This document shows, piece by piece, positions 126-14,257 of a stretch of DNA of 20,000 nucleotides. A program made the translations under genes and the position numbers. The stretch lies in IMG/VR virus record IMGVR_UViG_3300013005_000033, positions 58,117-78,116 of that record; one strand, written 5' to 3'. This stretch comes from an uncultured virus (IMG/VR IMGVR_UViG_3300013005_000033). Its lineage: Duplodnaviria; Heunggongvirae; Uroviricota; Caudoviricetes. The notes below the pieces were generated by a model. It was not told the DNA's origin. It saw only the letters and a program-made list of their open reading frames with translations, and searched no databases. Positions within the stretch are counted from its first letter, which is position 1; every line of letters begins with the position of its first letter.

Positions 126-141
126 AATGAGCGCAGACAAC
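1..141 (+). ncRNA. Putative TnpB omega-RNA (reRNA) 3' scaffold plus flank-derived guide (126 to about 141)
   Basis: Stems GAATCCGC/GCGGGTTC and CCCACGGCTTCAGCGAGCC/GGCTCGCTGAAGCCGTGGG, then TAGTTCAC. TnpB omega-RNAs overlap the right end and take the guide from the flank. Confidence 0.55.
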
Positions 142-372
142 TTTGTCATCGTCCGCAAGTTTGAGGACGGGTGGCGTTGGGCCATGGGCTTCGCCACCCA
201 TTGTGTTGAAAACAACCTCTCTTTTGGAGAGGGGGTCAAGGACCGGAGTTTCGTCAACGGCCCATTCGGCACGATTGAAGATGCGTCAAGCCACGCCGAA
301 AAAGAACTCGGAATCATCGAGTACGGAATAATCGTGGACAACCATAAAGAGATCCATAATGACCACGCTTGA
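127..372 (+). CDS. Hypothetical phage protein, paralog of 5358-5576
   Basis: Shares MSADNFVxVRKFxDGWxWAMGFAT...FVNGPFGT...HAxKxLGIIEYGI with 5358-5576. Confidence 0.85.
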   Translation: MSADNFVIVRKFEDGWRWAMGFATHCVENNLSFGEGVKDRSFVNGPFGTIEDASSHAEKELGIIEYGIIVDNHKEIHNDHA

Positions 373-628
373 ATATTGGGTTGTTCGTGTGGCCTATTTG
401 GTCGAGGGCGCCGCCGGAGTCGCCGGACTGGCCGCTATGGTGCTTGTTCCTTGGATTCTTCTGATCGGGTTTGTTTCGTGCTGGCTTTGGCGCCGATCAA
501 AGTATTCAAAACTCCGTTCCGCCGTCAGGCGCCTCTTGGACGATGTCAACTCCCGCTACCCGGACAAGAACCCAAGGGAGTGGAGTTGTCCCTATATGCA
601 GGCCTTGGACGACATGACCCATACATGA
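359..628 (+). CDS. Membrane protein; C-terminal module shared with 5569-5853
   Basis: Hydrophobic stretch VAGLAAMVLVPWILLIGFVSCWLW, then RLLDDVNSRYPDKNPREWSCPYMQALDDMT. Confidence 0.8.
   Translation: MTTLEYWVVRVAYLVEGAAGVAGLAAMVLVPWILLIGFVSCWLWRRSKYSKLRSAVRRLLDDVNSRYPDKNPREWSCPYMQALDDMTHT
545..588 (+). repeat. 44-nt perfect direct repeat, second copy at 5761-5804
   Basis: GTCAACTCCCGCTACCCGGACAAGAACCCAAGGGAGTGGAGTTG at both sites. Confidence 0.95.
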
Positions 629-1002
629 AAAACCAAGCCATCAAACTCTTGCTGTGCCGGATGCACGAACTTTCTTGTTGGTATCGGACCAACTTCAGGA
701 ACCATAGCCAATTAGACGGCTACAGGTCCGAGTATGACTTGCACCAAGCCTACCTTGAGGAGATCGGATGCTCTTGCGTCCGTAGAGAGAAAATCATCGT
801 CCGAGAGTTCTTGCAGAATCCCGACAAACAAACCTTGGAATCCCTCGGGCTTCCGGAAGGACGATTCGTCGCTTTGGCCCACCCTTGGGAGGCGACTACG
901 ATCATACTTATACCCGAAGACCTCGCCATGAAGGCCGTCGTTCTCGGGGAGTTCCCGGCAATGGATGCGTTCGGGCAACCAAGGAGCCATCAACTTGCAT
1001 GA
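625..1002 (+). CDS. LGxP-family member 1
   Basis: ATGA overlap start; AYLEEIGC ... IPEDLAMKAVVLGEFP. Confidence 0.85.
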   Translation: MKNQAIKLLLCRMHELSCWYRTNFRNHSQLDGYRSEYDLHQAYLEEIGCSCVRREKIIVREFLQNPDKQTLESLGLPEGRFVALAHPWEATTIILIPEDLAMKAVVLGEFPAMDAFGQPRSHQLA

Positions 1003-1238
1003 GAGTCTATATCGTCATCGGAACGACGGAAGGCGTCTACCAAGACGAAATCGGCGGGCCTTTTCTCCCTCATCCCGACAAGGAAATCGTTGAAGTATTC
1101 TCAAAGCAGGAGGATGCGGAGAATTTCGTCAAGAACAGGAAGTTGAAGAAGCCGGAAAGAGGGAGTTACGGCGACACCTCCTTCTACAAGGGCGGATACT
1201 ACGAACTTGAGGTAGAGGAACATGAAGTCAGAGGATGA
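999..1238 (+). CDS. Small hypothetical phage protein (MRVYIV...VFSKQEDAENF type)
   Basis: ATGA overlap; common phage pattern VYIV...EVFSxxEDA...EVEEHEV. Confidence 0.8.
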   Translation: MRVYIVIGTTEGVYQDEIGGPFLPHPDKEIVEVFSKQEDAENFVKNRKLKKPERGSYGDTSFYKGGYYELEVEEHEVRG

Positions 1239-1539
1239 CGACGGACGCTATTTGCTCTTGGGAGGAAGATCCTCGCCCGGCCCTCTGTCGGCTCAAGGCC
1301 CCATCTACGACAGGTTCCAGAATTTTTTGTACGACATGGTGGCCCTCGGTACGCCGCAGCCGAAGGGGAGGGCGGATGCCTTGAAGACGAGACTAGAGGG
1401 TGTCGGGGTCAGATTTTCAAATAACCCATGGCCTCCGACCCGAAAGCCAAACGAATGGGTGTTCGCATCGCCCTTCGGAGCGCACCTCGCAATTGACAAG
1501 GAAACCGCCGAGAAAATATTGGTGCTGGGACTGCCATGA
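1222..1539 (+). CDS. LGxP-family member 2
   Basis: GAGG RBS; ends IDKETAEKILVLGLP*. Confidence 0.85.
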   Translation: MKSEDDDGRYLLLGGRSSPGPLSAQGPIYDRFQNFLYDMVALGTPQPKGRADALKTRLEGVGVRFSNNPWPPTRKPNEWVFASPFGAHLAIDKETAEKILVLGLP

Positions 1540-1850
1540 GAGACCTTATTGACATCGTAAAGATCGCAAATCAGCATCCCCACCAAGGCTATCCGAGGAA
1601 AATGAAGGTCTATGACATTCTTCAAAGAAAGTATACCGAATCCTTTGAAAACAAAGAGATGGATGTGTTCAGCCATGTGGCCTACGCAATGGCAAAGACG
1701 AAGTGGCACGAATATCTCAAGTCGCTCGGCATGACTTTTGACATAGAGGAAGGCATACTTGATCCTTCCTGTCATCTGGAATGGCAGCAGAGATGGATCA
1801 AGATTTCCGAAGAAACGATGAACAAGATATTGACATTGGGGTTGCCATGA
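1536..1850 (+). CDS. LGxP-family member 3
   Basis: WHEYLKSLG ... ISEETMNKILTLGLP*. Confidence 0.85.
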   Translation: MRDLIDIVKIANQHPHQGYPRKMKVYDILQRKYTESFENKEMDVFSHVAYAMAKTKWHEYLKSLGMTFDIEEGILDPSCHLEWQQRWIKISEETMNKILTLGLP

Positions 1851-2140
1851 GATGGGAAAGACGATCCATATCAAAACTTGAACTGATTCTTCGCGAGAGG
1901 TTTTCAAAACTGCACGCAGAACGCTTGCCCGTGACCGTCGGCCGGCACTTGAACATCGTCAAGGAGTGGACCAAGCTCCTTGAGGAATCGGGATGTCTTT
2001 TTTCTTCAAAGGGCTGTCTCGTGGAGCCCGTGAATCATCCGAAGGGATTCGTCGTCGTGTCCGACCCCATCAAGTGTAGGACGATTGCCGTTCCGGAAGA
2101 ACTCGCCTTGAAGGCGATCGTTTTTGGGGAGATCCCGTGA
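1847..2140 (+). CDS. LGxP-family member 4, close paralog of 11436-11726
   Basis: ATGA start; WTKLLEESGC ... VPEELALKAIVFGEIP*. Confidence 0.85.
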   Translation: MRWERRSISKLELILRERFSKLHAERLPVTVGRHLNIVKEWTKLLEESGCLFSSKGCLVEPVNHPKGFVVVSDPIKCRTIAVPEELALKAIVFGEIP

Positions 2141-2502
2141 AAGAAAAACTCTACCAAATCCTCAACGACAAGTGGCTTGACATAGGTGTTCTCTGGCGAG
2201 CCACCTTCCGGCGTCAGATCGGCCTTGAAGGACTGCCCCGCAAAACAAACAGAGGACAATTTGATCAACATTTGTGGGACGAATACTTGCGGGAAATGAA
2301 CATAACCCATCCGGCGGTAGAGGTTCATTTCCTCGGAAGAGAGACCGAACATTACTTCATCGAGAACCCGGCGGCGAAGGAGAAGTTGGTGGGAGTCCCC
2401 AAAGAACTCGCCATGAAGGCCTTGGTGCTGGGGCACTTCCCCGACAGCCCCTCGATTGAGAAAATGCGGGACTGTTTCCATGAACCATCAAAAGCTCCTT
2501 GA
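2137..2502 (+). CDS. LGxP-family member 5 (PDSPS subfamily)
   Basis: GTGA start; KLYQILNDK, WDEYLREMN, VPKELAMKALVLGHFPDSPSIE. Confidence 0.85.
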   Translation: MKEKLYQILNDKWLDIGVLWRATFRRQIGLEGLPRKTNRGQFDQHLWDEYLREMNITHPAVEVHFLGRETEHYFIENPAAKEKLVGVPKELAMKALVLGHFPDSPSIEKMRDCFHEPSKAP

Positions 2503-2794
2503 AATATTCATCGCCAAATTGGACAAGGTCTGTCCGCCGAAGAGCGGACAGAATGTCCGCAATGACGCTTGGTGGTCAATCATAGAGAAGTATGGATGCA
2601 AGATGATACCATCTGGGCAAATAGCGGACCTGGTCAACAACGGACCGAACGACTATGTGTGCATGAAGTCTTTCAATGTATCGGTGGTGAATGCCCACTG
2701 GGTGCTTGTTCCCAAGGAACTTGCTTTGAAGGCCCTGACGCTCGAATACCTTCCCGACAGCCCCTCGGCAGAAAGACCTCGTGAATCCACATGA
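2480..2794 (+). CDS. LGxP-family member 6 (PDSPS subfamily)
   Basis: WWSIIEKYGC, VPKELALKALTLEYLPDSPS. Confidence 0.8.
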   Translation: MNHQKLLEIFIAKLDKVCPPKSGQNVRNDAWWSIIEKYGCKMIPSGQIADLVNNGPNDYVCMKSFNVSVVNAHWVLVPKELALKALTLEYLPDSPSAERPREST

Positions 2795-3255
2795 CAAAAG
2801 ACAAACTCTACCACATCCTCAACGAGAAGTTGTTTGACATCGCCGATCTGTACAAAGGTCACGAGTTGGAGCATTCCCGGCCTGGGCCGAAGCCGAACTG
2901 GATGCCCGTTATCTCAAGTGCGATAAAAGGAATCTTCACAGAACAGTTTGATCTTGAAATCTGGAAATTGTATCTTGAGGAGATTGGAGTTATCAAATTT
3001 GTTCGCTCCGGATGGTTCAGGGAGAACGATATGGAGGACGAAATCGAGAACCTCTCCTTCGCGGACCTCCAGGGCCAGAAGGTTGATATTGAATGGATCA
3101 AAGAAAATCTTACGATAATTCCGGATCCGCTCGCACAGTTTCATAGGGTCGGAATCCCCAACGAACTCGCCACGAAGGCGTTGGCCCTCGGGTACTTCCC
3201 CGACAGCCCCTCAATTGAAAGAATGCGGGAGGCCTCCCTTGGACACAGCGGATGA
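2791..3255 (+). CDS. LGxP-family member 7 (PDSPS subfamily)
   Basis: KLYHILNEKLFDIADL, WKLYLEEIG, IPNELATKALALGYFPDSPSIE. Confidence 0.85.
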   Translation: MTKDKLYHILNEKLFDIADLYKGHELEHSRPGPKPNWMPVISSAIKGIFTEQFDLEIWKLYLEEIGVIKFVRSGWFRENDMEDEIENLSFADLQGQKVDIEWIKENLTIIPDPLAQFHRVGIPNELATKALALGYFPDSPSIERMREASLGHSG

Positions 3256-3532
3256 ACTGTACGAACTGTACAAAATGCTTGAGAGGAGACACCGCGACCT
3301 CATGGTCTTCTTCAGCAATATTTGTTGCGATCCGAACCGCTGGCCGATACATTTGAGGCCGATCTGGGACAAGTACTTGCTGAGTCTGGATTGCAAAAAA
3401 GGCCTCCAACCAGGCGACTTCCTGTACATCCCCAGTCCCTCGAACGAATGGAAGGAGACGGTAGCCTTCCCCAAGGATGTGGCGTTCAAAGCCTTGGTTC
3501 TCGGCGAACTGCCGGAAATGGACCTGGAATGA
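3239..3532 (+). CDS. LGxP-family member 8 (start uncertain)
   Basis: TTG start after GGAGG; WDKYLLSLDC, FPKDVAFKALVLGELP. Confidence 0.75.
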   Translation: MDTADELYELYKMLERRHRDLMVFFSNICCDPNRWPIHLRPIWDKYLLSLDCKKGLQPGDFLYIPSPSNEWKETVAFPKDVAFKALVLGELPEMDLE

Positions 3533-3840
3533 CAGACAAGATCAACGACGAGACATACAGGCTTCTCAAGAAGAGGTTTGACGAACTGGCGGGTGTCATG
3601 GGCTTAAAGGGTCGCCTTGGCGATCTTTGGCTCAACTACCTTGAGGGCTTGGGATGCGCCGTAGTTGAAAACATTCGCCCAACCAACCCACCTTCGGAAT
3701 CGGAGAACTTCGTGGTCTGTCGCAACCCATCAAGCCCCCCGTTCGGCAAAGGGTTTGTCGAGGAGGTGCGGATTCCCAAGGAGACCGCGCTCAAGGCTAT
3801 TTTGATAAGCGATTTTCCACCCGGAACCCAGCAAAAATGA
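3529..3840 (+). CDS. LGxP-family member 9
   Basis: YRLLKKRFDEL, WLNYLEGLGC, IPKETALKAILISDFP. Confidence 0.85.
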   Translation: MTDKINDETYRLLKKRFDELAGVMGLKGRLGDLWLNYLEGLGCAVVENIRPTNPPSESENFVVCRNPSSPPFGKGFVEEVRIPKETALKAILISDFPPGTQQK

Positions 3841-4166
3841 CAGACAAGATGAGCAAAAAGATATACGCGCTCTTGAAGAAGAGGTTTGACGACCTCATAG
3901 ACTTGTACATAAAAAAGAGCGGCTCGCTCTCCATCTGGACTCCAAACATAGACCAGATGTGGCGGGACTATCTTGACGAGATCGGGTGTTTACGATACCA
4001 CAGTTCAGATATTCTTGACCATGTCATTTCAAACATTGACGATTATGTGGTCTGTCTGAATCCCCAGAGTAGTTTCACGGGCTACATAGCGGTTCCCAAA
4101 GAGACCGCGTTCAAGGCCGTCGTCCTCGGCGAGTTTCCGGAGATTTCGTTTGAGGTTGCGAAATGA
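3837..4166 (+). CDS. LGxP-family member 10, tandem paralog of member 9
   Basis: YALLKKRFDDL, WRDYLDEIGC, VPKETAFKAVVLGEFP. Confidence 0.85.
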   Translation: MTDKMSKKIYALLKKRFDDLIDLYIKKSGSLSIWTPNIDQMWRDYLDEIGCLRYHSSDILDHVISNIDDYVVCLNPQSSFTGYIAVPKETAFKAVVLGEFPEISFEVAK

Positions 4167-4450
4167 ATTCTGAAATGGGCTCCACCAAGCTGCACCAACT
4201 TCTAGAGGAGAAGTGGGAAAAGGTGTTTGGACAGTACCGCTCCCTCCAAAAATGGGCGGAATATATCAACGAGATGGGCTTCAAGACAACAAGAATCGTA
4301 TATGCTCCCGACGGACATGCCGCATATGCGATGAAATTTCCCGACCACGAGGATGTCTTCTTCGTCCTTGATCCATTGAGCAAATTGCATCTCATTTCAA
4401 TTCCCAAGGAAGTCGCCTTCAAGGTTCTGGCCTTGGGAGGGTTCCCGTGA
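4163..4450 (+). CDS. LGxP-family member 11
   Basis: KLHQLLEEKW, WAEYINEMG, IPKEVAFKVLALGGFP*. Confidence 0.85.
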   Translation: MNSEMGSTKLHQLLEEKWEKVFGQYRSLQKWAEYINEMGFKTTRIVYAPDGHAAYAMKFPDHEDVFFVLDPLSKLHLISIPKEVAFKVLALGGFP

Positions 4451-5361
4451 ATGAAAAACTCTATGACATCCTGAACAAGAAACTTTTTGACATCGCGGAC
4501 TTGCACTACGAAAAAGCCAATTCTCCGCACCGCCAAGAACCCCGCCACGAGCGCCTTGGCAAAAAGATTGTTTCTAGTTCCCCGGTTTCTACCTCGTTTG
4601 GCCCGAAGATCATGTTCCCCAAGCATGTTTGGCGCTCATATCTCGACGAGATGGGAATCGTCAAAGCCGAGGGGGTTGAACAGCGAGTCCTTCCTGTCGG
4701 AAAATTTTTGATCGTGGCGGATCCTCTTGTTGCATACGAAAAGTTGGGCGTCCCCGAAGAACTCGCCATGAAGGCCTTAGCCCTTGGATACTTCCCCGAC
4801 AGCCCCTCAATCGAGAATATGCGGGAGACAGCCTTAGAAGAACCAGTTTACACGATCAAAAGTCGGGGCTATAATGCTCTAGGAAAAACTCAAATGATCT
4901 ACCTCGTGCTTGCAGTCGCGCTACTTCTCGCCATCCCGATAGGGCTGGAATGCTTGTTCGCCTATCTCATGGACGACGCCGAGAAAAACCGCCACCTTCG
5001 GGAAACAAGTGATAAAATCATGAAAGAAAATCGCCATGACGCTCTCCTTGAGGCCGCGACGCGACTTTATGAGTGCGATTTTTGGAAGCCAACTAGAATG
5101 TCGGAGGATGAGGCATCTAAGGCGTGGGAGGCGTTGCGTGACGCAATTGGGCTTTCGCCGGGAACAGCCACTCAGTGCGACGGGCGCATCGGCTCCTCGA
5201 CTAATGGAGCCTCATCTCTCACCGACGCGGAGCGGGCTGCGATCCTTTTCTTCGTAGACAAGCATCGCAAAATCCAGAAGGATGGCGAAAATTACTGCTG
5301 TATTGAGGCGAGTCTGCACGCCGATGCGCTTCAGGGCTTGCTTGAAAGGGAGTCCCGTTGA
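4447..5361 (+). CDS. LGxP-family member 12 (PDSPS subfamily), in frame with a downstream membrane-anchored module
   Basis: KLYDILNKKLFDIADL, WRSYLDEMG, VPEELAMKALALGYFPDSPSIE; no stop before the internal promoter, RBS and ATG 4894. Confidence 0.75.
   Translation: MNEKLYDILNKKLFDIADLHYEKANSPHRQEPRHERLGKKIVSSSPVSTSFGPKIMFPKHVWRSYLDEMGIVKAEGVEQRVLPVGKFLIVADPLVAYEKLGVPEELAMKALALGYFPDSPSIENMRETALEEPVYTIKSRGYNALGKTQMIYLVLAVALLLAIPIGLECLFAYLMDDAEKNRHLRETSDKIMKENRHDALLEAATRLYECDFWKPTRMSEDEASKAWEALRDAIGLSPGTATQCDGRIGSSTNGASSLTDAERAAILFFVDKHRKIQKDGENYCCIEASLHADALQGLLERESR
4847..4875 (+). promoter_or_regulatory. Sigma70-type promoter TTTACA-N17-TATAAT
   Basis: TTTACA at 4847-4852, 17-nt spacer, TATAAT at 4870-4875, then AGGA RBS and ATG 4894. 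Confidence 0.75.
4894..5361 (+). CDS. Probable independently initiated membrane-anchored protein with C-terminal LTDAERAAI...LQGLLER module
   Basis: Own promoter and RBS; N-terminal hydrophobic MIYLVLAVALLLAIPIGL. Confidence 0.6.
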   Translation: MIYLVLAVALLLAIPIGLECLFAYLMDDAEKNRHLRETSDKIMKENRHDALLEAATRLYECDFWKPTRMSEDEASKAWEALRDAIGLSPGTATQCDGRIGSSTNGASSLTDAERAAILFFVDKHRKIQKDGENYCCIEASLHADALQGLLERESR

Positions 5362-5576
5362 GCGCCGACAACTTCGTGGTCGTCCGCAAATTTGATGACG
5401 GGTGGTATTGGGCCATGGGATTCGCCACCAACTATGTGGAAAACGACAAGCCCTTTGAGGCAATTGAACCAGATCAGTTCGTAAATGGCCCGTTCGGCAC
5501 GGCCGAAGAAGCCGAGGAACACGCCAGCAAGGATTTGGGAATCATAGAGTACGGAATAGTGGTGAGTCATGATTGA
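5358..5576 (+). CDS. Hypothetical protein, paralog of 127-372
   Basis: TTG start after GGGAG; clear similarity to 127-372. Confidence 0.85.
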   Translation: MSADNFVVVRKFDDGWYWAMGFATNYVENDKPFEAIEPDQFVNGPFGTAEEAEEHASKDLGIIEYGIVVSHD

Positions 5577-5853
5577 AAAACAAGTCCCCCTGCACGAGCT
5601 TCTGGCGTCCGTCCCGGAAGACCACCGATTGGTCATCCACGGGGAGGGAAGATACCCGTCCAGCACCAGCATCCCTGTGGGAAGGCTGTGCCAAGAGGCA
5701 TCCAAGGAGTTAGAGAAACAATTTGAACTCCGTTTCGCCGTCAAGAGACTCCTGGATGACGTCAACTCCCGCTACCCGGACAAGAACCCAAGGGAGTGGA
5801 GTTGCCCCTACATGCAGGCTTTGGACGACATGACACGCGAGAAAACGATATGA
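5569..5853 (+). CDS. Hypothetical protein; C-terminal module shared with 359-628
   Basis: LRFAVKRLLDDVNSRYPDKNPREWSCPYMQALDDMT. Confidence 0.85.
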   Translation: MIEKQVPLHELLASVPEDHRLVIHGEGRYPSSTSIPVGRLCQEASKELEKQFELRFAVKRLLDDVNSRYPDKNPREWSCPYMQALDDMTREKTI

Positions 5854-5869
5854 AAAGGACTTAAATTGT

Positions 5870-6082
5870 ATGGAATCAAAAATTGAAAAACTTGTGGATT
5901 ACCTTCGGGCGGATGGGCATGACGACGATGCGGAAGCCTTGATTGTCGTGGATCATCTTATGAGGGAATATGCCTTCTCACATGAGCCTATGGAAGAAAA
6001 TGCAAAGATCTTTTCCCAACTACTGCAAGATTTAGTAGCGGATTGGATGGGAGGTGAAAGATGCAGATCGGTGACAAGATAA
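5870..6082 (+). CDS. Hypothetical protein
   Basis: AGGA upstream; fills the gap in the + strand array. Confidence 0.7.
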   Translation: MESKIEKLVDYLRADGHDDDAEALIVVDHLMREYAFSHEPMEENAKIFSQLLQDLVADWMGGERCRSVTR

Positions 6083-6468
6083 AGGGCGTTTCCAACCGAT
6101 TCGAGGACTTCGTGGGATCGTTCAACAAGAGCGAAATGGAGCCCGACCCGAATTCGGAGTACATCTACGACCACCACATCGTCTTCTGCGAGGAGGCTCC
6201 GTACAATATTCCTACGGAATACGCTTGTGGTGGACGCAAGATCGCAGTCAATGTCAGGAAGCAAGATGAGCGATGGTCTTCCCGGTACACCTTCAATTTC
6301 ATAGACGACGAGGCCAAGAGGGAGTATCACACCTACTACGGGTGGAGCCTCATCCCCCACACCTCCGAGAACCTGATGAGGCTTGAGGAGATCAAGTGGC
6401 TCAACGAGCAGATCAATCAGTTCGGAATTCGCATAGGGGCGGTCAGGAAAGAAATGGGGCATCTTTAA
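6061..6468 (+). CDS. Hypothetical phage protein
   Basis: GGAGGT RBS; MQIGDKIK start typical of small phage proteins. Confidence 0.8.
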   Translation: MQIGDKIKGVSNRFEDFVGSFNKSEMEPDPNSEYIYDHHIVFCEEAPYNIPTEYACGGRKIAVNVRKQDERWSSRYTFNFIDDEAKREYHTYYGWSLIPHTSENLMRLEEIKWLNEQINQFGIRIGAVRKEMGHL

Positions 6469-6565
6469 TGACTTCCTCTTGTTGCCCGAGGAACTCGCCC
6501 TCAAGATGATGGTTTTGGAATGTCCGATTTTGGCCGACAGGATCACAAACGATGAAGTCAAGTAG
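6437..6565 (+). pseudogene. Out-of-frame remnant of the LGxP-family C-terminal motif
   Basis: The frame after TAG 6434-6436 reads GRSGKKWGIFNDFLLLPEELALKMMVLECPILADRITNDEVK*, with no convincing start. Confidence 0.6.
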
Positions 6566-6881
6566 AAAGATCACATTTCACGCCGAATGCGAAAACTGCG
6601 GCGGAACCGGACTATATCGGGGTTTCATGGAGGCCCCAGATAAAGCAGTGGTCTGCATAACTTGCAGAGGCACCGGGTGTAATGTCTTAAATCTCAAGCC
6701 CTTTGAGGGCAGAAAGAAAAAGAGGGGCGTCAAAAAGTTTAGGTTCGGTTCGGGAACAATTCTAAATTCGCCAAGCAGCCCTAGTGGCCGTGACTACGAG
6801 TGGTTCCCGTACAAGGAGTTTCTCAAAAAAGTGCCCGAAATGGCAATTAAGGCGGTCAAAAAGGTCGCCAAGAAAAAGTAG
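6552..6881 (+). CDS. DnaJ-type CxxCxGxG zinc-finger phage protein
   Basis: CENCGGTG and CITCRGTG repeats; basic C-terminus. Confidence 0.8.
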   Translation: MKSSRKITFHAECENCGGTGLYRGFMEAPDKAVVCITCRGTGCNVLNLKPFEGRKKKRGVKKFRFGSGTILNSPSSPSGRDYEWFPYKEFLKKVPEMAIKAVKKVAKKK

Positions 6882-6888
6882 AACTCCC

Positions 6889-7197
6889 ATGACATACCAG
6901 CAAAAATGCGAGAAGTTCAGGAAGTTGATATACGAAGCCAACGGCCTCAAATTCCCGCCCACGCCCAGGTTGGCGCCCATATCCGAGCCGATACGGTGCC
7001 GATGGAAGAATCCAGAGGAACTTGCCGAGTACTTGGAATCATGGGGAGGCAGGTTGGTGCGAACTTGCAGAAGGAGAAGGGGCTATCTTGTAGTTAATCT
7101 TGAGGAGGGCATGGAGCCTGTCGGTCGCAGCCCGTCCATAGCGGAAGTGCCCATGGATTTCGCCACGAAAGTGCTCGTGATGGGAGGATTTCCTTGA
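6889..7197 (+). CDS. LGxP-family member 13
   Basis: LAEYLESWGG, VPMDFATKVLVMGGFP*. Confidence 0.8.
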   Translation: MTYQQKCEKFRKLIYEANGLKFPPTPRLAPISEPIRCRWKNPEELAEYLESWGGRLVRTCRRRRGYLVVNLEEGMEPVGRSPSIAEVPMDFATKVLVMGGFP

Positions 7198-7200
7198 AAT

Positions 7201-7340
7201 AACCACCGCCGTCAACTTGAGGAGTCGTCAACCTCGGGAGCCGGATGACTCACACCGGCTAGTCCGTCAAATGACCACCGAATTCCCGGGTTAGTGGTCA
7301 GCCAGGTAACTAGGTGCGGACAACGGTGGCGGCGGTGGTT
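7201..7340 (+). ncRNA. Candidate structured ncRNA: multi-way junction with loop-loop pseudoknot; family not recognised
   Basis: 14-bp closing stem 7201-7214/7327-7340 enclosing several stems; loops AGTCGT and ATGACT are complementary; fills one of the largest intergenic gaps in the array. Confidence 0.6.
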
Positions 7341-7399
7341 TTGAAACGATTGCATCAATTTGACAGATGGCATAAGAAACTGACCAAGGAATGCTGTAA

Positions 7400-7684
7400 A
7401 TGAGCCTGGCAAAAAAAGTTTGGCACCTTTTGCTTCGCAAGGGAATGGAGTTGAGGAGCAATCCCAACTTCTCCGAGGTTGAATGGGACGATTATGTTCT
7501 TTCAATCGGTTGCGAGACGGCGCAATGTGAAGCAAGTAATTTCGGCGGCTACGAAGAAGAAAAGAGCGTCGTTGTAAGGGACGAAAACCACACAGCGTTC
7601 GGCAACAAAAGAGGCCAAATCCCGAGGTGCTTGAGGATAGACAAGGAGACTGCCATGAAGATTGCGATTCTGGGGTTGCCATGA
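7400..7684 (+). CDS. LGxP-family member 14
   Basis: AAGGA RBS; WDDYVLSIGC, IDKETAMKIAILGLP*. Confidence 0.85.
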   Translation: MSLAKKVWHLLLRKGMELRSNPNFSEVEWDDYVLSIGCETAQCEASNFGGYEEEKSVVVRDENHTAFGNKRGQIPRCLRIDKETAMKIAILGLP

Positions 7685-7941
7685 AACTTGAAAGCCAGAT
7701 AGTCGCGATGCTTTGGCACAAGAGCCATGAGATAATCATGATCAAGAAGCCTCCTAGGCCCCAAATGGATTGGTACGAGAAAAACTGGCTTTCGTATTTG
7801 ATGGACATAGGCATCTTTCCATATGATGAGCACTCTCCTAACCTCGACGATCTCGTGATCGTCAATGATCCATGCGGCACTGGTCGTTTGGCGCTGTCAA
7901 AGGAAACGGCCATGAAGATCATGGTTTTGGGGCTGCCATGA
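7681..7941 (+). CDS. LGxP-family member 15
   Basis: WLSYLMDIG, LSKETAMKIMVLGLP*. Confidence 0.85.
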   Translation: MKLESQIVAMLWHKSHEIIMIKKPPRPQMDWYEKNWLSYLMDIGIFPYDEHSPNLDDLVIVNDPCGTGRLALSKETAMKIMVLGLP

Positions 7942-8126
7942 ACAAGGAAGAAATGATACAATCTGTTACGCTGAAGCTCAGCGACGGCACCGTGGGAACC
8001 TTCGTGGGTCCCGCCTTGGTGTTTGAAGAGTCCGCAAGGATAGTGGATGTGACATTCGGGCCGCCCAGGCCCATGCCGACCGGTTGCGAGTGGGGAAAAA
8101 TAGACACGGAGGAGCACGATGAGTAA
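7938..8126 (+). CDS. Small hypothetical protein
   Basis: ATGA overlap; MNKEEMIQSVTLKLSDG... Confidence 0.75.
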   Translation: MNKEEMIQSVTLKLSDGTVGTFVGPALVFEESARIVDVTFGPPRPMPTGCEWGKIDTEEHDE

Positions 8127-8946
8127 ACAAGAACAACAAGAGCGTTTCAATGCCGCCGTAATGAACTGGATCGCCGAGGCAACAAGCATGTACTCCGGCG
8201 CCTGCGGCGACGGAGGCAGACGCATTGTGGCCGACGCTTGCGGGCAGTGCTGGACTGCATTTGAAGCAATGAAGAATCCAGAGCCCGAATCCCCAGTTCC
8301 ACTGAAGAGCGGTGCGGCACCGGCAGATACACAGGAACCGGTGGCGTGGTACGGTTACGCCGTACGAGCAGACGGCGGGTTTTGCAAGAGCCTTGACTTT
8401 AGCCAGAAGGACGTGGAACGCGAGCTTGCCCAAAACGCCCGCACCGTAATTGAAATCGTTCCGCTCTACCGCCAGCCGCAGCCTACGCTCACCGACGAGC
8501 GTGCTGTGGCAAAAACAGAAGGCAATGTTTGGCTGCACGCATCAAACAAAGAGTTGAGCGACGAAGTTGACAGGCTCACCGCCGAGGTTAACCGTCTGGA
8601 GGCATGGCGCGACACGGCGATGAAGTTCGGCGAGAGCATCGTCACTACCGGCCCTACGGGATACTACGATTTCACTCCGGCGGAGTGGATGGATTGGGCG
8701 ACTCAACATATCCATCCCCGTAGCCCTTCGCCTGCGACTCTTACCGACCACGAGTTCAAGATGATTGACAATCTTGCGTTTCTTCTTGAACAGTATGGAT
8801 GGAAGAGCTATGCCGTCGTGCTCAAATCGCTGCTCGTAAAACTTGGAGGCCGCGTTGAAAAAGAAGAAGAGACAAGGGTTAGGGTTGAAGATTGTTTTCC
8901 CAAAGTTCCCAATCAGCCCGGATTCATGAGGTGGTTCAAAAAATGA
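8119..8946 (+). CDS. Modular phage protein with EPVAW...PLYRQ module, coiled coil and LTDxE module
   Basis: GGAGG RBS; QEPVAW...IVPLYRQPQPTLTDE; LSDEVDRLTAEVNRLE; ATLTDHE...LKSLLVKLGG. Confidence 0.8.
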   Translation: MSKQEQQERFNAAVMNWIAEATSMYSGACGDGGRRIVADACGQCWTAFEAMKNPEPESPVPLKSGAAPADTQEPVAWYGYAVRADGGFCKSLDFSQKDVERELAQNARTVIEIVPLYRQPQPTLTDERAVAKTEGNVWLHASNKELSDEVDRLTAEVNRLEAWRDTAMKFGESIVTTGPTGYYDFTPAEWMDWATQHIHPRSPSPATLTDHEFKMIDNLAFLLEQYGWKSYAVVLKSLLVKLGGRVEKEEETRVRVEDCFPKVPNQPGFMRWFKK

Positions 8947-8951
8947 AGTAT

Positions 8952-8984
8952 ATCGGGACAGAAATCGGGACATTGTGTCCCGAT
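8952..8984. repeat. ATCGGGACA direct repeat (two copies) plus inverted copy
   Basis: ATCGGGACA at 8952-8960 and 8964-8972; TGTCCCGAT at 8976-8984. Confidence 0.85.
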
Positions 8985-8994
8985 CTTGCAACTA

Positions 8995-9159
8995 TTGGCG
9001 ACTCGTGAAAAACCTAGATGGAAAAAAATATCTCAAGAATCGTTGGCACACGCAGTTATTCGTAATCTACTTGAACGCCTCGGTGTAGCCGGCGACGAGT
9101 TTCTGTCCATCGACGATGAAATCCTGCGAAATATGATTGATCAAGGAGAAAAGAAATGA
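8995..9159 (+). CDS. Small hypothetical protein (below ORF-track cutoff; start uncertain)
   Basis: TTG start; ...AHAVIRNLLERLGVAGDEF...GEKK*, stop overlaps the next ATG. Confidence 0.45.
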   Translation: MATREKPRWKKISQESLAHAVIRNLLERLGVAGDEFLSIDDEILRNMIDQGEKK

Positions 9160-9320
9160 CAAAATACAATAGTGTTCAAGAAATGCTGGACGATGCTGGA
9201 GAGCCAGATTTTGCCGAAGATTTTCGTAAACATATGGCAAAACCATTTGTAAGACTCAAGAAATTTTTTTCAATTAATTGGGCTGTATTGGTTGCATTTA
9301 TTTGTAGAAAGAAAAAATGA
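9156..9320 (+). CDS. Small hypothetical protein (54 aa)
   Basis: AAGGAG RBS; MTKYNSVQEMLDDAGEPDF...; ATGA overlaps at both ends. Confidence 0.7.
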   Translation: MTKYNSVQEMLDDAGEPDFAEDFRKHMAKPFVRLKKFFSINWAVLVAFICRKKK

Positions 9321-9601
9321 ACGACAACAATGAAGTAGTCACTGTAACACTATCCCTTACCAAACATCAGTGGAAAGACATCATCCAGCATATTATGAAT
9401 GATGCTAGTATGTTGGAAATGGGATTATGCGCCCAAGCTGATCGTGATGCAGACCTAGTGGAAGAAAACCAAAGATTGAAAAATCAAGCGGAGCGACATA
9501 TGGAAATTATGACGCTCAAATCAATGAAACTGGCACAGGGTGGCTACCAACCCGTAGTGAGTCAAACCGAAGTGCCGAAGGCTCCGCCTAAGAAGCGGTG
9601 A
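9317..9601 (+). CDS. Hypothetical protein with coiled coil
   Basis: ATGA overlap; LVEENQRLKNQAE. Confidence 0.75.
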   Translation: MNDNNEVVTVTLSLTKHQWKDIIQHIMNDASMLEMGLCAQADRDADLVEENQRLKNQAERHMEIMTLKSMKLAQGGYQPVVSQTEVPKAPPKKR

Positions 9602-9675
9602 AGCAACCCGGTACTTTTGTGTTTTTTGCGCCGGAAAATTTTAACCTTGACGCACTATTATCGCTAGGAGAAAAA

Positions 9676-9885
9676 ATGATTAAAATGATTTACGCATCCG
9701 CCGTGGCTACTTTTTGTTCCATACTGACATCTGCTTTGGTTTTGGGTTTTTTATATTGGATTGTGAATATATTCAAGCTGAATTACGGAAGAGACGCATA
9801 TTGGGTTTTTAGTGTTGCATTCTTTGCGTTTCTGATAAGTTGGATAGTTGTATTTGGTCTTTTTGTCGGACAGAACAGTCGGTAG
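9676..9885 (+). CDS. Small two-TM membrane protein (in-frame upstream GTG at 9598)
   Basis: AGGAG RBS before ATG 9676; two hydrophobic segments. Confidence 0.7.
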   Translation: MIKMIYASAVATFCSILTSALVLGFLYWIVNIFKLNYGRDAYWVFSVAFFAFLISWIVVFGLFVGQNSR

Positions 9886-9911
9886 AATTACCGGTTTTGA
9901 TTGGAAAAATC

Positions 9912-10175
9912 ATGAGCAAATTTGAACCCGGCACGGTTGTGGTTTTTGCTCCAGAAAATTTTAACCCCGAGTTTTGGAACAAGTTGCCAGAACAAGATAA
10001 AGTTAAGTATTATGGATCATTGGGATACGGATCAAAAAAACCAAAGTTCTTTGCATTCTTGACTGAAATTAAAAATGCTCCTGGTCATTGTGTTTTGGCT
10101 GATTTGGATGACGGAAGAATTGAAGTTATGAGACACATTAGTGATTTTAGAGAAGTTAACGAGGATGAATTCTAA
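9912..10175 (+). CDS. Hypothetical phage protein
   Basis: MSKFEPGTVVVFAPENFN...GHCVLADLDDGRIEVMRHISDFREV. Confidence 0.8.
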   Translation: MSKFEPGTVVVFAPENFNPEFWNKLPEQDKVKYYGSLGYGSKKPKFFAFLTEIKNAPGHCVLADLDDGRIEVMRHISDFREVNEDEF

Positions 10176-10266
10176 AAAGAGATAGAAAAAGTAAATTCCA
10201 AAATGGTTTCTTGACTGGTTTATCCAAACCCTAAATATTGCCTGTTTTAAAATCCGTCGTCGTGAC

Positions 10267-10295
10267 TTTACACCGACCTAAAACGAGACTAGAAT
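10267..10295 (+). promoter_or_regulatory. Sigma70-type promoter TTTACA-N17-TAGAAT
   Basis: Same -35 hexamer and spacing as 4847; intergenic; upstream of AAGGAG RBS and ATG 10325. Confidence 0.75.
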
Positions 10296-10324
10296 GAGGA
10301 AGAAGATCGCAAAGGAGCGAGTCC

Positions 10325-10489
10325 ATGGAAAAATTCAACTGGTGCGCCTTCTGGAAGGGCTTTGACATCTTCGGCGCGATGTTCTCACCGCCGCCGGATC
10401 TGCCAAAAACAGACGAAGAGGCGTTCGCACGCGACATGCAGGCACTCGCAGACGATTTTGAGACCGTGATCAAGGATCAGAGGAGATGA
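10325..10489 (+). CDS. Small hypothetical protein (54 aa)
   Basis: AAGGAG RBS; MEKFNWCAFWKGFDIFG...DMQALADDFETVIKDQRR*. Confidence 0.75.
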   Translation: MEKFNWCAFWKGFDIFGAMFSPPPDLPKTDEEAFARDMQALADDFETVIKDQRR

Positions 10490-10490
10490 A

Positions 10491-10874
10491 ATGAAGAAGA
10501 AGATCGCCGAGAAATGGGTCAAGGCCCTTCGTTCCGGAAAGTACAAGCAGGGCAGGCACGCCCTCAAGTACAAGACCAAGGCCGGAGTCACGAGGCACTG
10601 CTGCCTCGGGGTATTGTGCGAACTCTACCAGAAGGAGCACAAGAGGAAGTTGAAGACCGAGGCAGAGAGAGGCACTGAAGAACTCAGGGACTGCAAGGTG
10701 ATGAAATTCGGCGACTGCAACGGGACGTTGCCCGAAAAGGTGATGATTTGGAGTGGCATAGGAATCGACGATGGCGGACTGCCCGACGGACGCACCCTCG
10801 CCCAGATGAACGACCACGGCGATGACTTCGAAGACATCGCGTATGTAATTGAGAGCGAGTACGATGGTCTATGA
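10491..10874 (+). CDS. Conserved phage hypothetical protein (KWVKALRSGxYKQG...CCLGVLC type)
   Basis: WVKALRSGKYKQG, CCLGVLCE, LAQMNDHGDDFEDIA; AGGAG RBS. Confidence 0.85.
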   Translation: MKKKIAEKWVKALRSGKYKQGRHALKYKTKAGVTRHCCLGVLCELYQKEHKRKLKTEAERGTEELRDCKVMKFGDCNGTLPEKVMIWSGIGIDDGGLPDGRTLAQMNDHGDDFEDIAYVIESEYDGL

Positions 10875-11158
10875 CCCACCCCCTTGATGTCACCGAGGGA
10901 TGGACGAAACTCTACGCCACCATCCACTCCGAATTCGCGCTCGCCCAGATGAAAGGGAACTTGGTCTATCCCGGAGAGATGATAGACGAATGGAACGCCC
11001 GATTGGAGTCGCTCGGCATGATCCTCACAGATTATCAAACTTGGACGGGAATAAAAGGGTCAAACCCCAACGGCATCACCATGTCCAATCCCGCCGGGGG
11101 ATGGATTCAAATTCCGTTGGATGTGGCGACGAAGGTACTGACGCTGGGGTTGCCGTGA
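10871..11158 (+). CDS. LGxP-family member 16
   Basis: WNARLESLG, IPLDVATKVLTLGLP*. Confidence 0.85.
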   Translation: MTHPLDVTEGWTKLYATIHSEFALAQMKGNLVYPGEMIDEWNARLESLGMILTDYQTWTGIKGSNPNGITMSNPAGGWIQIPLDVATKVLTLGLP

Positions 11159-11439
11159 TGAGACCCGACAGGAAACTCGCGGAGACGATCCAGAAGGCGT
11201 ATTACAATTCCGACCCTTGGCCTCCGAAGAGCGAGGACTGGCTGAGGCGCATACTCCGAACGGGAGCCTGGTTGGCAAGGGCGGATAACGCTGAAATTCA
11301 ACTTGAGAAAGATCCCAACCTTTGTTCGTGTGCGGATCCCGGAGACTTCATGTGCCGGACATTCGGCGTCGTGGAGGCGACCATGATCCTCGTCCCGAAG
11401 GAAATCGCAATCAAAATCATGACATTGGGGCTGCCGTGA
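11155..11439 (+). CDS. LGxP-family member 17
   Basis: GTG 11155 or ATG 11158; WLRRILRTG, VPKEIAIKIMTLGLP*. Confidence 0.8.
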   Translation: MMRPDRKLAETIQKAYYNSDPWPPKSEDWLRRILRTGAWLARADNAEIQLEKDPNLCSCADPGDFMCRTFGVVEATMILVPKEIAIKIMTLGLP

Positions 11440-11726
11440 ACAGAGAATCAATCTCCAAACTGGAGCACATGTTTCGTGATAGTTTCTTTAGGCTTTACGA
11501 CATGTATTTCAGACATGAGCCCGTCATCAAACACGATTGTGTCATGCTGAAGTGGACCGAATTCTTGAAGGGTCATGGATGCTATTTTCTTTTAAAGGGC
11601 CGTCTTGTTGAGCCAGTGAATCATCCGAAAGGCTTCGTGCTCGTGTCCGACCCCATCAGGTGCAGAACAATAGCGGCCCCGACAGAATTCGCCCTAAAGG
11701 CTCTGTATTTTGGCGAAATCCCATGA
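11436..11726 (+). CDS. LGxP-family member 18, close paralog of member 4
   Basis: SISKLE, WTEFLKGHGC, LVEPVNHPKGFVLVSDPIRCRTIAAPTEFALKALYFGEIP*. Confidence 0.85.
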   Translation: MNRESISKLEHMFRDSFFRLYDMYFRHEPVIKHDCVMLKWTEFLKGHGCYFLLKGRLVEPVNHPKGFVLVSDPIRCRTIAAPTEFALKALYFGEIP

Positions 11727-12043
11727 GCATGGATACTTTTTTAGACCAACTCAACCTCAAGGTGTACCGGCTCTTCAGAGAGAAGGGCAAGGAACTGAAG
11801 GGTGCGGGCTTGTTCTCCGAAGAGGGTTGGCTGGAGTACATACATTCGCTGGGGTGCGAAACCTCCGACAAGCAATCCTGCACCCGGTGTGGCAAGACCA
11901 GCATCATCCCTTATGACTCAAAGATGATTGTCTTCAGGGACGAACATTTTATTCGGGAAAAGGACGGATCAAAATACTACGACCGAATGATATTGGTAGA
12001 CACAGAAACGGCATTCAAGATCGTCGCACTGGGACTGCCATGA
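11723..12043 (+). CDS. LGxP-family member 19
   Basis: KVYRLFREKG, WLEYIHSLGC, VDTETAFKIVALGLP*. Confidence 0.85.
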   Translation: MSMDTFLDQLNLKVYRLFREKGKELKGAGLFSEEGWLEYIHSLGCETSDKQSCTRCGKTSIIPYDSKMIVFRDEHFIREKDGSKYYDRMILVDTETAFKIVALGLP

Positions 12044-12336
12044 TAACCCGAGAAAACAAGGACAAGATCGCCCAACTCATTCAAGAGTCCACCTCGCATC
12101 CGAAATTGAAGTTCTCGGACACGCTCCCGAAGAAGTCCGGGATGAGCTTCTTCCAAGAGGAACTCCTCAAACTCGGGATAAAGGAAGTAGAGAAGGACAA
12201 GGGCAAATTCGACAGCAAGAAGCACATAATCATTGATCTGGGGTGGCCCGTCAGAAGCGGCAAAGTGCTGAAAGTTCCAACCCCGTTGGCCATAAAGATT
12301 CTGGCGTTGGGCTTTTTTCCTTGGAAGATACAATAG
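12040..12336 (+). CDS. LGxP-family member 20
   Basis: FQEELLKLG, VPTPLAIKILALGFFP. Confidence 0.8.
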   Translation: MITRENKDKIAQLIQESTSHPKLKFSDTLPKKSGMSFFQEELLKLGIKEVEKDKGKFDSKKHIIIDLGWPVRSGKVLKVPTPLAIKILALGFFPWKIQ

Positions 12337-12350
12337 TTTTGGAGACACTC

Positions 12351-12593
12351 ATGGACGACGCCGAGAAACAAGATTTTGAACTCAATCCCGTCTCCCTCAA
12401 GACGGCCGGAACTATGAAGGTGCGCTATGTAAACGGGGACAAACTCAAGCCAGTGCAACTTGAAGATGGCGGACTAACATCCGGACAGCGGGATGCGATA
12501 AGAATCGCCTTGGTACATTTGATCTTGGCCTCGGTGAAAGACCCCTCGCTAGAAAAACACATTGAAACACTCAGGGACATGATTGAAGCATGA
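12351..12593 (+). CDS. Hypothetical protein with LTxxQRDAI module
   Basis: GGAG RBS; MDDAEK...LTSGQRDAIRIAL...HIETLRDMIEA. Confidence 0.75.
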   Translation: MDDAEKQDFELNPVSLKTAGTMKVRYVNGDKLKPVQLEDGGLTSGQRDAIRIALVHLILASVKDPSLEKHIETLRDMIEA

Positions 12594-12808
12594 GCAAATT
12601 GGGAAGAACCGCGTGGTGCCTGCGTTCGCCGAAGGGGAGGCTTGTCATCAAGACGCTCCATTCAAGCCGATCCGCATGTCTGGAGTTGAGCATCCCGTGC
12701 TTCAGATTCAAGCATAACTGGCTCCAGCCTTTTAACAGGACATGGAAGGAAGCCAGAAGTCTCGGGTGGAGCGTTGTCCTTGTGGATATCAAGGAAAAAT
12801 CAAAATGA
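12590..12808 (+). CDS. Small basic hypothetical protein
   Basis: ATGA overlaps at both ends. Confidence 0.75.
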   Translation: MSKLGRTAWCLRSPKGRLVIKTLHSSRSACLELSIPCFRFKHNWLQPFNRTWKEARSLGWSVVLVDIKEKSK

Positions 12809-12915
12809 ACATTTTTCAAAAACTCAATACTCCGATAACTGTTCCTAAATGGAAGTATGCTCTTTTGTGGCTTTTGGTGTTTATGACCGCCGTCACTCAC
12901 ATGTTTAAGAAGTGA
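12805..12915 (+). CDS. Small membrane peptide (36 aa)
   Basis: MNIFQKLNTPITVPKWKYALLWLLVFMTAVTHMFKK*; ATGA overlap. Confidence 0.5.
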   Translation: MNIFQKLNTPITVPKWKYALLWLLVFMTAVTHMFKK

Positions 12916-12959
12916 CCGTCGGCCAAAGGAAAAACACATGACTGAGTCAAAGGTGAATA

Positions 12960-13322
12960 ATGAGTGAACAAGAACCTGTGGCGTGGGCTCTTTATCCGCC
13001 TCTTGATGAAACGCCAAAAAAGCCAGTGATGGTATTTCAATGCCTAAAAGATGCGAATGATGAAGCGATTGAGTCCGGGTGTGATATCGTCCCTCTGTAC
13101 CGCCAATCGCGGTGGATTCCTATAACGGAACAACTCCCCCCAGAGGGCGAGCGCGTTTTGTTTTACTTGGACGATCCGTTGACAGAGGTGAATCTTGGAT
13201 GGTGGGAGGGCAAGCACACGCACGGCAAAGCGATTGCCATGGAGTACGGAGATGCCGACGGCGATTGGCTCCCGTGTAGCCACTGGATGTCGCTTCCGAC
13301 CACAACGAGTGAACAAAAATGA
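12960..13322 (+). CDS. DUF551-like phage protein with N-terminal EPVAW module
   Basis: WIPITEQLPPEGERVL...SHWMSLP (DUF551 signature WIxxxExLP...HWMPLP); QEPVAW...IVPLYRQ. Confidence 0.8.
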   Translation: MSEQEPVAWALYPPLDETPKKPVMVFQCLKDANDEAIESGCDIVPLYRQSRWIPITEQLPPEGERVLFYLDDPLTEVNLGWWEGKHTHGKAIAMEYGDADGDWLPCSHWMSLPTTTSEQK

Positions 13323-13436
13323 GAAGAACAAACCAGATAGTCGGCATGGTCAACTTCCCGGTGGACTCGGATCAGTACGAGAGCACCAAGGTATGATTAG
13401 GTTGCATACGCTGCCAACCCCAGTGACGAGATGTAG

Positions 13437-13847
13437 ATGAAACCGAGAAAGCAAAAAAAAATGAACGACGAACAGAAAACTTGGTTGAAAGTTCTCCTTT
13501 ATTTAGTTGCAATCATATCATTGGTTTCTTTCTTGTGTTATTTGGACAATGAGTGGAGAGAGAAGATGGGCTCCGCCATCTTTTGCCCCAAGGGCGTCAA
13601 GCCGAACAATGTGGTGGAACGCTTCCACGAACACCAAGAAGTCAAGGTCTTGGAAAAGGGTACCGACGAGGTCGTAAGGACCTACGGAAGGGTGCGGCTC
13701 ACTTTCCTCTCCAAGGATTCGTTCATGATACAGGACGACAACACAGGGAACCCCATCCTGCTTCTCGTGCAACTCAAACCCAACGAATATGTCACGGCGT
13801 TCACGAAAACTGAAAATTTTGAAGCCAAGGCTTGGGGTTTAAAATGA
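13437..13847 (+). CDS. Membrane-anchored hypothetical protein (start may be 13461)
   Basis: TM segment WLKVLLYLVAIISLVSFLCYL. Confidence 0.75.
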   Translation: MKPRKQKKMNDEQKTWLKVLLYLVAIISLVSFLCYLDNEWREKMGSAIFCPKGVKPNNVVERFHEHQEVKVLEKGTDEVVRTYGRVRLTFLSKDSFMIQDDNTGNPILLLVQLKPNEYVTAFTKTENFEAKAWGLK

Positions 13848-14257
13848 ATGAGTCTTGTGCCGATCCCGACGCCCCGCTCGAGAGCTGCTTCGTGTGTGGA
13901 AAATCCATCCACACCTGCGAAAGGAAAGAGGCCGTAAACAACAGCTATCTCTGTCCCGTTCATGGCGACGGGTGGCAGAGGGGCGATGGGGCTTGGATCT
14001 GTAGCGAGGAGTGCGACCAGAAGTATGAAGCCGACAAGCCCCGCCACTCCAGCTTAAAGTTCTTCCACCCCTTCAACTTCGTCTTCGTCAAGAGGCCGAA
14101 GACGGACGATCCCAACTGGCACCCCAGTGACGACCTTCACCAATATGGATTCAGCCTTGACCTGACTACCGAACTTTATTTCTACACCTACGACTGGGGC
14201 CGGGGTTTTAACTTCAGGGTATTGGGATTCGGATTCGAGGTGTGCTTCAACCCATGA
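13844..14257 (+). CDS. Cys-rich (putative Zn-binding) hypothetical protein
   Basis: CFVC, CPVH, CSEEC motifs; ATGA overlap. Confidence 0.75.
   Translation: MNESCADPDAPLESCFVCGKSIHTCERKEAVNNSYLCPVHGDGWQRGDGAWICSEECDQKYEADKPRHSSLKFFHPFNFVFVKRPKTDDPNWHPSDDLHQYGFSLDLTTELYFYTYDWGRGFNFRVLGFGFEVCFNP

Follow-up and report, generated by a model that had tools for sequence, protein, structure and literature searches.

The locus described here lies in the window, a stretch of 20,000 nucleotides that forms the final 20 kb of a 78,116-bp IMG/VR virus record. Since CheckV rates the record as 16% complete at this length, its source is taken to be a large phage. In addition to genes for a split DNA polymerase, PhoH, dCMP deaminase, thymidylate synthase, PrkA and a head protease, the record contains mobile DNA, including an intein in SpoVR, two TnpB-like genes and a TnsA-like endonuclease. 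Searches of the 78-kb record returned neither tRNAs nor Rfam family matches. Identical phage DNA is present in lake-water and freshwater metagenome runs, and nine sequencing runs, originating from lake, freshwater and aquatic metagenomes, contain DNA of this phage, no RNA data set being among them.

Window positions 1-16,500 are occupied by an array of small genes, all on the + strand and frequently joined by ATGA overlaps. Many of these genes encode members of a single paralogous protein family (about 100 aa each), with at least 20 copies over window 376-16200 and genome 52-58 kb, in which the C-terminal motif PKE-A-K-L-LG-(F/L)P is followed by the stop codon. A profile of 10 paralogues, searched against 1.84 billion proteins, recovered 221 representative clusters (E <= 0.001); neither Pfam nor PHROG has a name for the family. 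Gaps make up only a few percent of the phage genome. One of them, a non-coding gap of 202 nt at 7198-7399, contains a 140-bp element that begins 4 nt past the stop codon of the upstream gene. The element, its parts and its flanking genes are arranged as follows:

6889..7197, + strand: upstream gene, encoding a 102-aa protein of the paralogous family that has the C-terminal ...FATKVLVMGGFP motif
7194..7199, + strand: left copy of TTGAAA, which includes the upstream TGA stop (7195-7197); a single T lies between this copy and P1
7201..7214, + strand: P1 5' arm (left inverted-repeat arm), AACCACCGCCGTCA, paired with 7327-7340 in the MFE structure at a mean probability of 0.96
7216..7238, + strand: P2 hairpin, a 7-bp stem including two U-G pairs (arms 7216-7222/7232-7238) and a 9-nt loop AGUCGUCAA, with the loop word AGTCGT at 7223-7228; probability 0.96
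7239..7260, + strand: P3 hairpin, a 6-bp stem (arms 7239-7244/7255-7260), with the loop word ATGACT read in the sequence at 7245-7250; probability 0.98
7262..7321, + strand: P4 domain, a 6-bp stem (7262-7266(7)/7316(7)-7321) enclosing P5 and P6; probabilities 0.94-0.96
7272-7300, + strand: P5, a 7-bp stem (7272-7278/7294-7300) with a 15-nt loop
7301-7315, + strand: P6, a GUAA tetraloop hairpin
7327..7340, + strand: P1 3' arm (right inverted-repeat arm), TGGCGGCGGTGGTT
7341..7346, + strand: right copy of TTGAAA, directly after P1, forming with 7339-7340 a UUUU run after the GC-rich stem
7400..7684, + strand: downstream gene, encoding a 94-aa protein of the family and preceded by an AAGGAA ribosome-binding site of its own

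The P1 helix comprises 13 Watson-Crick pairs and one wobble (U7212-G7329), and its arms constitute a 14-bp inverted repeat at genome positions 65317-65456. Stop codons are present in all three + frames of the gap. A decayed family gene was considered and rejected, the family profile giving a best hmmsearch E value of 0.82 in six frames, and an antisense ORF at 7212-8225 was rejected as a real gene, as it matches no family in Pfam or PHROG. In GC content the element stands above its surroundings, and the other gaps of the array are AT-rich. No sigma-70-type promoter was detected directly upstream of the element in a scan of 6000-7675. As the downstream gene has its own ribosome-binding site, its translation is not coupled to that of the upstream gene. 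A word search of 5.8 billion proteins with the downstream gene product returned only the self-match; an exhaustive search yielded a 54% orthologue (P0051) on contigs of at most 3,396 bp, which was found in neither viral_contigs nor metagenome_contigs. Within the P5 loop, positions 7281-7292 consist of adjoining EcoRI and SmaI palindromes (GAATTCCCGGG) and resemble a polylinker; because independent lake metagenome runs contain it as well, this stretch is regarded as natural.

In the gap at 6469-6551, the C-terminal motif of the family can be read in the DNA (6489-6518, the D4 reference copy) outside the listed ORFs of at least 40 aa, and this gap may represent a family member that has been truncated or has suffered a frameshift. 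One segment of two genes occurs twice, at window 128-628 and 5359-5853, with 78-91% identity between the copies (repeat families D7, D12 and D17). In an AT-rich gap of 209 nt, the 9-mer ATCGGGACA occurs in direct orientation at 8952-8960 and 8964-8972 and inverted at 8976-8984, an arrangement suggestive of a protein-binding site or of a terminator at the boundary of a transcription unit. GC content is 0.40 in window 9001-10000, compared with about 0.50 elsewhere, and in this low-GC stretch two paralogous membrane-like small genes (9598-9885 and 9840-10175) share a 42-nt start (86% identical).

An earlier note, made from the letters alone, had proposed a novel structured RNA in the gap. All the helix arms that it named are present, and ViennaRNA gives the same architecture. 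On the + strand, the MFE of 7195-7350 is -65.7 kcal/mol, the shuffles averaging -49.5 (sd 4.04); this corresponds to a z-score of -4.01, and none of the 200 shuffles is as good, so the expectation of a folding energy better than that of shuffled controls is borne out for the whole element. Mean helix pairing probabilities are 0.94-0.98 with 156, 351, 551 or 951 nt folded. On the - strand, the MFE is -58.8 (z -2.50; 5/200 shuffles as good). Of the pairs in the + fold, 44 are Watson-Crick and 7 are G-U; mirrored on the - strand, this structure scores -55.4, about 10 kcal/mol worse. Taken together, the z-scores of the two strands, the G-U pairs and the mirrored score indicate a moderate bias toward RNA in the gene direction, the orientation that the earlier note favoured from the wobbles. 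When folded as DNA, both strands reach significance (z -4.49 and -3.55), and a DNA-level or mobile-element origin would therefore account for the same inverted repeat.

The energy signal of the element comes mostly from P1, and only this closing stem is statistically unusual. Without P1, the core (7215-7326, 112 nt) has a z-score of -1.58 on the + strand, with 17/200 shuffles as good, and of -0.22 on the - strand; the MFE structure of the core has a frequency of 12%, and the centroid nearly coincides with it. The fold is thus thermodynamically robust because of one long-range stem. P1 is not rare by itself: when inverted repeats of at least 14 bp with at most one G-U pair were counted within 220 nt, the 78-kb contig contained four, whereas 20 Markov simulations averaged 0.85 (range 0-4). 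Besides P1, these four comprise the right-end hairpin of TnpB, another hairpin located in the polymerase insert and a repeat that lies within a gene. What sets P1 apart is its placement, almost exactly around one of the few gaps. In a structure scan with 146-nt windows regressed on GC, windows misaligned with the element reached z-scores of only -1.4 to -2.1; at its exact boundaries, hand arithmetic on the scan regression puts the residual near -20.7 kcal/mol (z about -3.5), which would make the element approximately the sixth most structured locus of the contig. A whole-element z-score that rests on one inverted repeat calls for caution with similar first-stage calls.

The P2 and P3 loops had further been proposed to form kissing loops. 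The 6-nt complementarity is indeed present; however, the L2-L3 loop-loop duplex, at -4.6 kcal/mol, is near chance, being equalled in 176/5000 shuffled (3.5%) and 647/5000 random (13%) loop pairs, and it competes with two extra inner pairs that the MFE structure places in P3. In addition, a 6-bp loop-loop helix between two short linkerless hairpins of one molecule would be sterically strained. A search for trans targets of the loops found only 9-10-nt complements, which is chance level. For the P3 loop AUGACUCAC, the complement is a 9-nt stretch at 5562-5570 that spans the start codon of the gene at 5569-5853; about one match of this length is expected by chance per search.

The element belongs to no known RNA family. 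Rfam 15 (4227 models) gave no match at the gathering score in the 20-kb window and none in the other 60 kb. At E <= 10, region 7000-7600 yielded three matches of 12-18 bits against gathering scores of 40-95 (best E 1.5), and the best sub-threshold match scored 17.6 bits against a gathering score of 95, so the novelty claimed for the element is not removed by a known family. ARAGORN found no tRNA or tmRNA gene in the window, and a search of the full-text literature found no description of such an element. Reverse transcriptase (PF00078, RVT_1) and Ro60 (PF05731, TROVE) domains were absent from all three records of the phage, the control for PF00078 being found in 3/14 genomes, which argues against a partner of the retron or Y-RNA type. 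A retron ncRNA (msr-msd) was accordingly rejected, there being no reverse transcriptase gene and the neighbours being 94-102-aa family proteins, as was a bacterial Y RNA (YrlA-like), with neither a TROVE gene nor an Rfam match.

Some established RNAs share parts of this shape. In the lysine riboswitch (RF00168) and the SRP Alu domain, two neighbouring hairpin loops touch, and the element has the same topology, namely a closing helix, two adjacent hairpins with complementary loops and further helices. Unlike these RNAs, it has no Rfam match at E 10 and no turn motif, its loop pairing is weak, and no conserved core nucleotides were identified in it. The phi29-type pRNA (RF00044), from a phage of about 20 kb, has a long 5'/3' closing helix and complementary loops that pair between molecules. 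The element shares the closing helix and the complementary loops with it as a resemblance of shape only; it differs in being located in a huge phage of an unrelated type, away from packaging genes, and in having no Rfam match.

The most structured region considered here is the 3' region of a tnpB gene at window 1-230 (z -7.31), far above the element. The gene (genome 56944-58224) ends at window 108, and its product is a 23% paralogue of the other TnpB copy, which carries OrfB_IS605 and a Cas12f1-like TNB domain. It terminates in a perfect 19-bp hairpin (76-117), and window 1-230 is probably the omega-RNA and right end of the TnpB element, directly followed by one copy of the duplicated two-gene segment. 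On the left flank, TTTCCTTGAACTTTAC is followed by new sequence, and the unoccupied junction in a relative of the phage (G005, described below) reads TTTCCTTGAACTTTACG, which suggests a TnpB insertion after TTAC. Like this right end, the element is strongly structured and directly follows the TTTCCTTGAA stop context of a family gene. Unlike it, the element has terminal inverted repeats, lies 7 kb from the nearest tnpB (which ends 7.1 kb upstream) and shows no flank similarity, local alignments with four tnpB flanks scoring 16-20, below the shuffle maxima of 21-28. IS200/IS605 ends are not known to have terminal inverted repeats. An IS200/IS605-derived element (PATE) or a TnpB omega-RNA was rejected on account of the missing end similarity and the wrong position. 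Elsewhere in the genome, the DNA polymerase gene (genome 19116-24863, loci L022/L023) lies in two pieces on the - strand, between which are a 473-aa + strand ORF without a family and, within a strongly structured stretch, a 17-bp hairpin (genome 23194-23231); no Rfam intron was reported in this insert. The intein in SpoVR (genome 38197-41028) is of the LAGLIDADG type.

The element is single-copy in the 78-, 101- and 41-kb IMG/VR records of one huge-phage species. Three phage contigs are 100% identical over 6,282 bp, and contigs from four further runs (8 pieces) contain no differences, so that no strain variation is available. Searches by blastn with 6500-8500 and with the element found no homologue among phages, and none of the element among plasmids; diverged homologues of the element were likewise not found in viral_contigs, metagenome_contigs, GTDB genomes, phages or plasmids. 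Loci anchored on the downstream gene occurred in only two contigs, both identical to the source. A covariance model (R1), built from the single element sequence, found no match in two DNA polymerase relatives (G001 and G002, 67% and 85% aa), in which the syntenic genes are also missing. In relatives reached through P0154 (L049-L051), the best model score was 15.5 bits, with an unrelated fold at that place. A search with the alignment of upstream-gene orthologues added no new record, and a loop-pattern scan of metagenome_contigs returned two stretches, mutually identical and unrelated to the element.

The most informative comparison is provided by relative G005 (locus L034, reached via P0004), which matches the array in scattered pieces at 71-92% nucleotide identity. 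Its orthologue of the upstream gene (54% aa) has the same ending, TTTCCTTGAA, after which come CTTTACG, TTGAAAGG and, about 40 nt on, a gene like window 5870-6082. The covariance model scores at best 9.7 bits at this locus and has no match in the whole 73-kb record. The counterpart of the downstream gene in G005 is only a 38% paralogue, and a homologue of window 6549-6755 is directly followed by a homologue of window 10481-10655. This gene order and the missing element place the element at the left edge of a phage-specific block of about 3.7 kb, and its location is a mosaic breakpoint rather than a clean filled-versus-empty site.

Several explanations have to be weighed against these data. Correia/NEMIS-type elements are examples of MITEs, and the locus might likewise be MITE-like or otherwise inserted DNA, either a non-autonomous element or a scrap of illegitimate recombination, with P1 as the terminal inverted repeat and the RNA fold as a by-product; this is unlikely, yet deserves serious weight. 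MITEs are described as non-coding, intergenic elements of 50-800 bp with inverted repeats of at least 10-15 bp and flanking duplications of 2-10 bp (PMC11602168), and in form the element fits this description: its 140 bp are intergenic and do not code, its terminal inverted repeats measure 14 bp and its 6-bp flanks are identical (TTGAAA on both sides). It would be foldable if transcribed. An origin of this kind is also consistent with the concentration of the fold significance in the terminal inverted repeat, the folding of both DNA strands, the GC-richness of the element relative to its surroundings, the orthologous upstream gene without the element in G005, and the other mobile DNA of the phage (two TnpB-like genes, an intein and a TnsA-like endonuclease). 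However, in contrast to MITEs, the element has no second copy in the collections searched and no known cognate transposase. It is single-copy in the 78-, 101- and 41-kb records, and blastn against plasmids and phages gave no copy. An inverted-repeat scan of viral_contigs returned 18 stretches, two from this phage and 16 from unrelated GC-rich DNA, and a scan of GTDB species genomes returned 10, all unrelated and several visibly coding, with model scores of at most 15.9 bits from the arms alone; these pattern scans require exact repeat cores, and diverged copies could escape them. As for the flanks, the left TTGAAA copy is offset by 1 nt from P1 and coincides with the stop context, the word occurs 21 times in the window against 4.9 expected (about 4-fold over-represented), and the element-free junction of G005 contains both TTGAA copies, 7 nt apart, so that TTGAAA is not demonstrably a target duplication. 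Moreover, the core consists of four separate local hairpins instead of one long palindrome, and the element has no similarity to the flanks of either TnpB gene. A DNA-level site, such as a protein-binding inverted repeat or a recombination or replication site acting in duplex or single-stranded DNA, would also draw on the folding of both DNA strands (z -4.49 and -3.55) and on the location at a mosaic junction; it is highly improbable, as operators do not typically have arms 112 bp apart, no arm copies occur elsewhere in the contig, no adjacent recombinase or replication gene was found, and the G-U bias favours RNA.

Chance offers a simpler account, in which non-coding DNA left behind at a recombination junction carries, by coincidence, one 14-bp inverted repeat together with ordinary GC-rich hairpins. 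About 0.85 such repeats are expected per 78 kb, the core z-score is -1.58, the kissing pairing is near chance level, the element was picked by eye out of a very large scan, and the region is a mosaic breakpoint. On the other hand, the repeat brackets the gap almost exactly, 4 nt past the stop, in a genome with only a few percent of gaps, the strands are asymmetric, and the locus would rank about sixth in structure at its exact boundaries (by hand arithmetic; the scan windows reach z -1.4 to -2.1), all of which render mere coincidence rather improbable. At the opposite extreme, the element might be a new autonomous structured ncRNA (a ribozyme, riboswitch-like sensor or decoy) with a four-way junction, an L2-L3 contact and a GNRA tetraloop. 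Its well-defined architecture (core MFE frequency 12%, centroid close to MFE), the GUAA tetraloop with the 6-nt loop complementarity and the + strand bias point in this direction, and such an RNA would be new, there being no Rfam family match. Nevertheless, the core energy is not significant, the loop-loop duplex is near chance and competes with two P3 pairs of the MFE structure, a linkerless loop-loop helix would be strained sterically, conservation is limited to one phage species with G005 lacking the element, and no partner gene (RVT_1 or TROVE) occurs in the three phage records, making an autonomous ncRNA improbable. Of the novel structured RNA put forward in the earlier note, the missing Rfam match and the whole-element energy hold, while the ribozyme or riboswitch form is disfavoured by the core, the kissing loops and the absence from G005. 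A related and quite improbable idea is that a new stable phage RNA of about 140 nt is cut from the array transcript and functions in trans as a decoy, scaffold or catalyst. Its 5'/3' helix, four-way junction, GNRA hairpin and complementary loops would then fold or, in the manner of phi29 pRNA, pair intermolecularly, and it would so far be restricted to one lineage of huge lake phages.

The interpretation preferred here, which is tentative and held at somewhat less than even confidence, is that the element is a lineage-specific intercistronic module clamped by an inverted repeat and acting in cis, as an mRNA barrier, a leaky terminator or a processing site. An RNA-processing site or cis element was among the possibilities listed in the earlier note and is plausible. 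The element would be transcribed together with the + strand gene array; the inverted repeat would clamp the 112-nt GC-rich core into a closed four-way-junction domain, with UUUU directly after it; and the structure could block 3' exonucleases, terminate part of the transcripts or offer a double-strand processing site. In this way the upstream gene would be expressed separately from the following block, which opens with a gene carrying a ribosome-binding site of its own. Ribosomes that terminate at 7195-7197 would sit over the P1 5' arm, and translation could conceivably modulate the clamp. The loop-loop contact is unnecessary for this cis-acting role and is unsupported.

A cis-acting role is favoured by several features of the locus. 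The fold is insulated from its context (z -4.01, with pairing of at least 0.94 in contexts of 156-951 nt), and its + strand bias, seen also in the core alone (z -1.58 on + against -0.22 on -), matches the neighbours, all adjacent genes lying on the + strand. GC-rich sequence fills a rare gap in a packed, often ATGA-overlapping array, starting 4 nt past a stop and leaving UUUU after P1. The sequence is non-coding, with stops in all + frames and no family remnant, and matches no known RNA family or tRNA, and no partner gene that would hint at a dedicated RNP occurs in the three phage records. Against this role stand the core, which by itself is equalled by 17/200 shuffles, the expectation of P1-like repeats by chance, and the apparent lack of conservation, since all copies are 100% identical and the closest relative is without the element. 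With respect to termination, a GC-rich 14-bp stem is followed by UUUUG, the "loop" being a 112-nt branched domain and the U run only 4 long, features not seen in canonical intrinsic terminators. A terminator scan (loop of 3-8 nt, at least 5 T in 8) did not report the element, its loop limit excluding 112 nt.

Intercistronic mRNA stems of several kinds have been characterized, including the 3' barriers of the REP/BIME type, the RNase III processing hairpins of phage T7 and intrinsic terminators. The element resembles these in its position between co-directional genes just past a stop, in its GC-rich stem with a short U run, and in that it would act in cis on mRNA ends; it differs in that its stem encloses a 112-nt branched core and its U run comprises only 4 nt. 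REP elements are repeated, whereas the candidate element is single-copy. Overall, the element is probably a local-acting candidate and not yet a new RNA class.

If an autonomous ncRNA were nonetheless encoded here, it would provide a lineage-specific structured RNA for huge phages, whose non-coding repertoire is almost unknown. If the cis-acting interpretation is true, the element would be an ordinary case of phage punctuation of long polycistronic arrays, and its main value would be as a mosaic-breakpoint marker in a large, uncharacterised paralogous family of huge freshwater phages.
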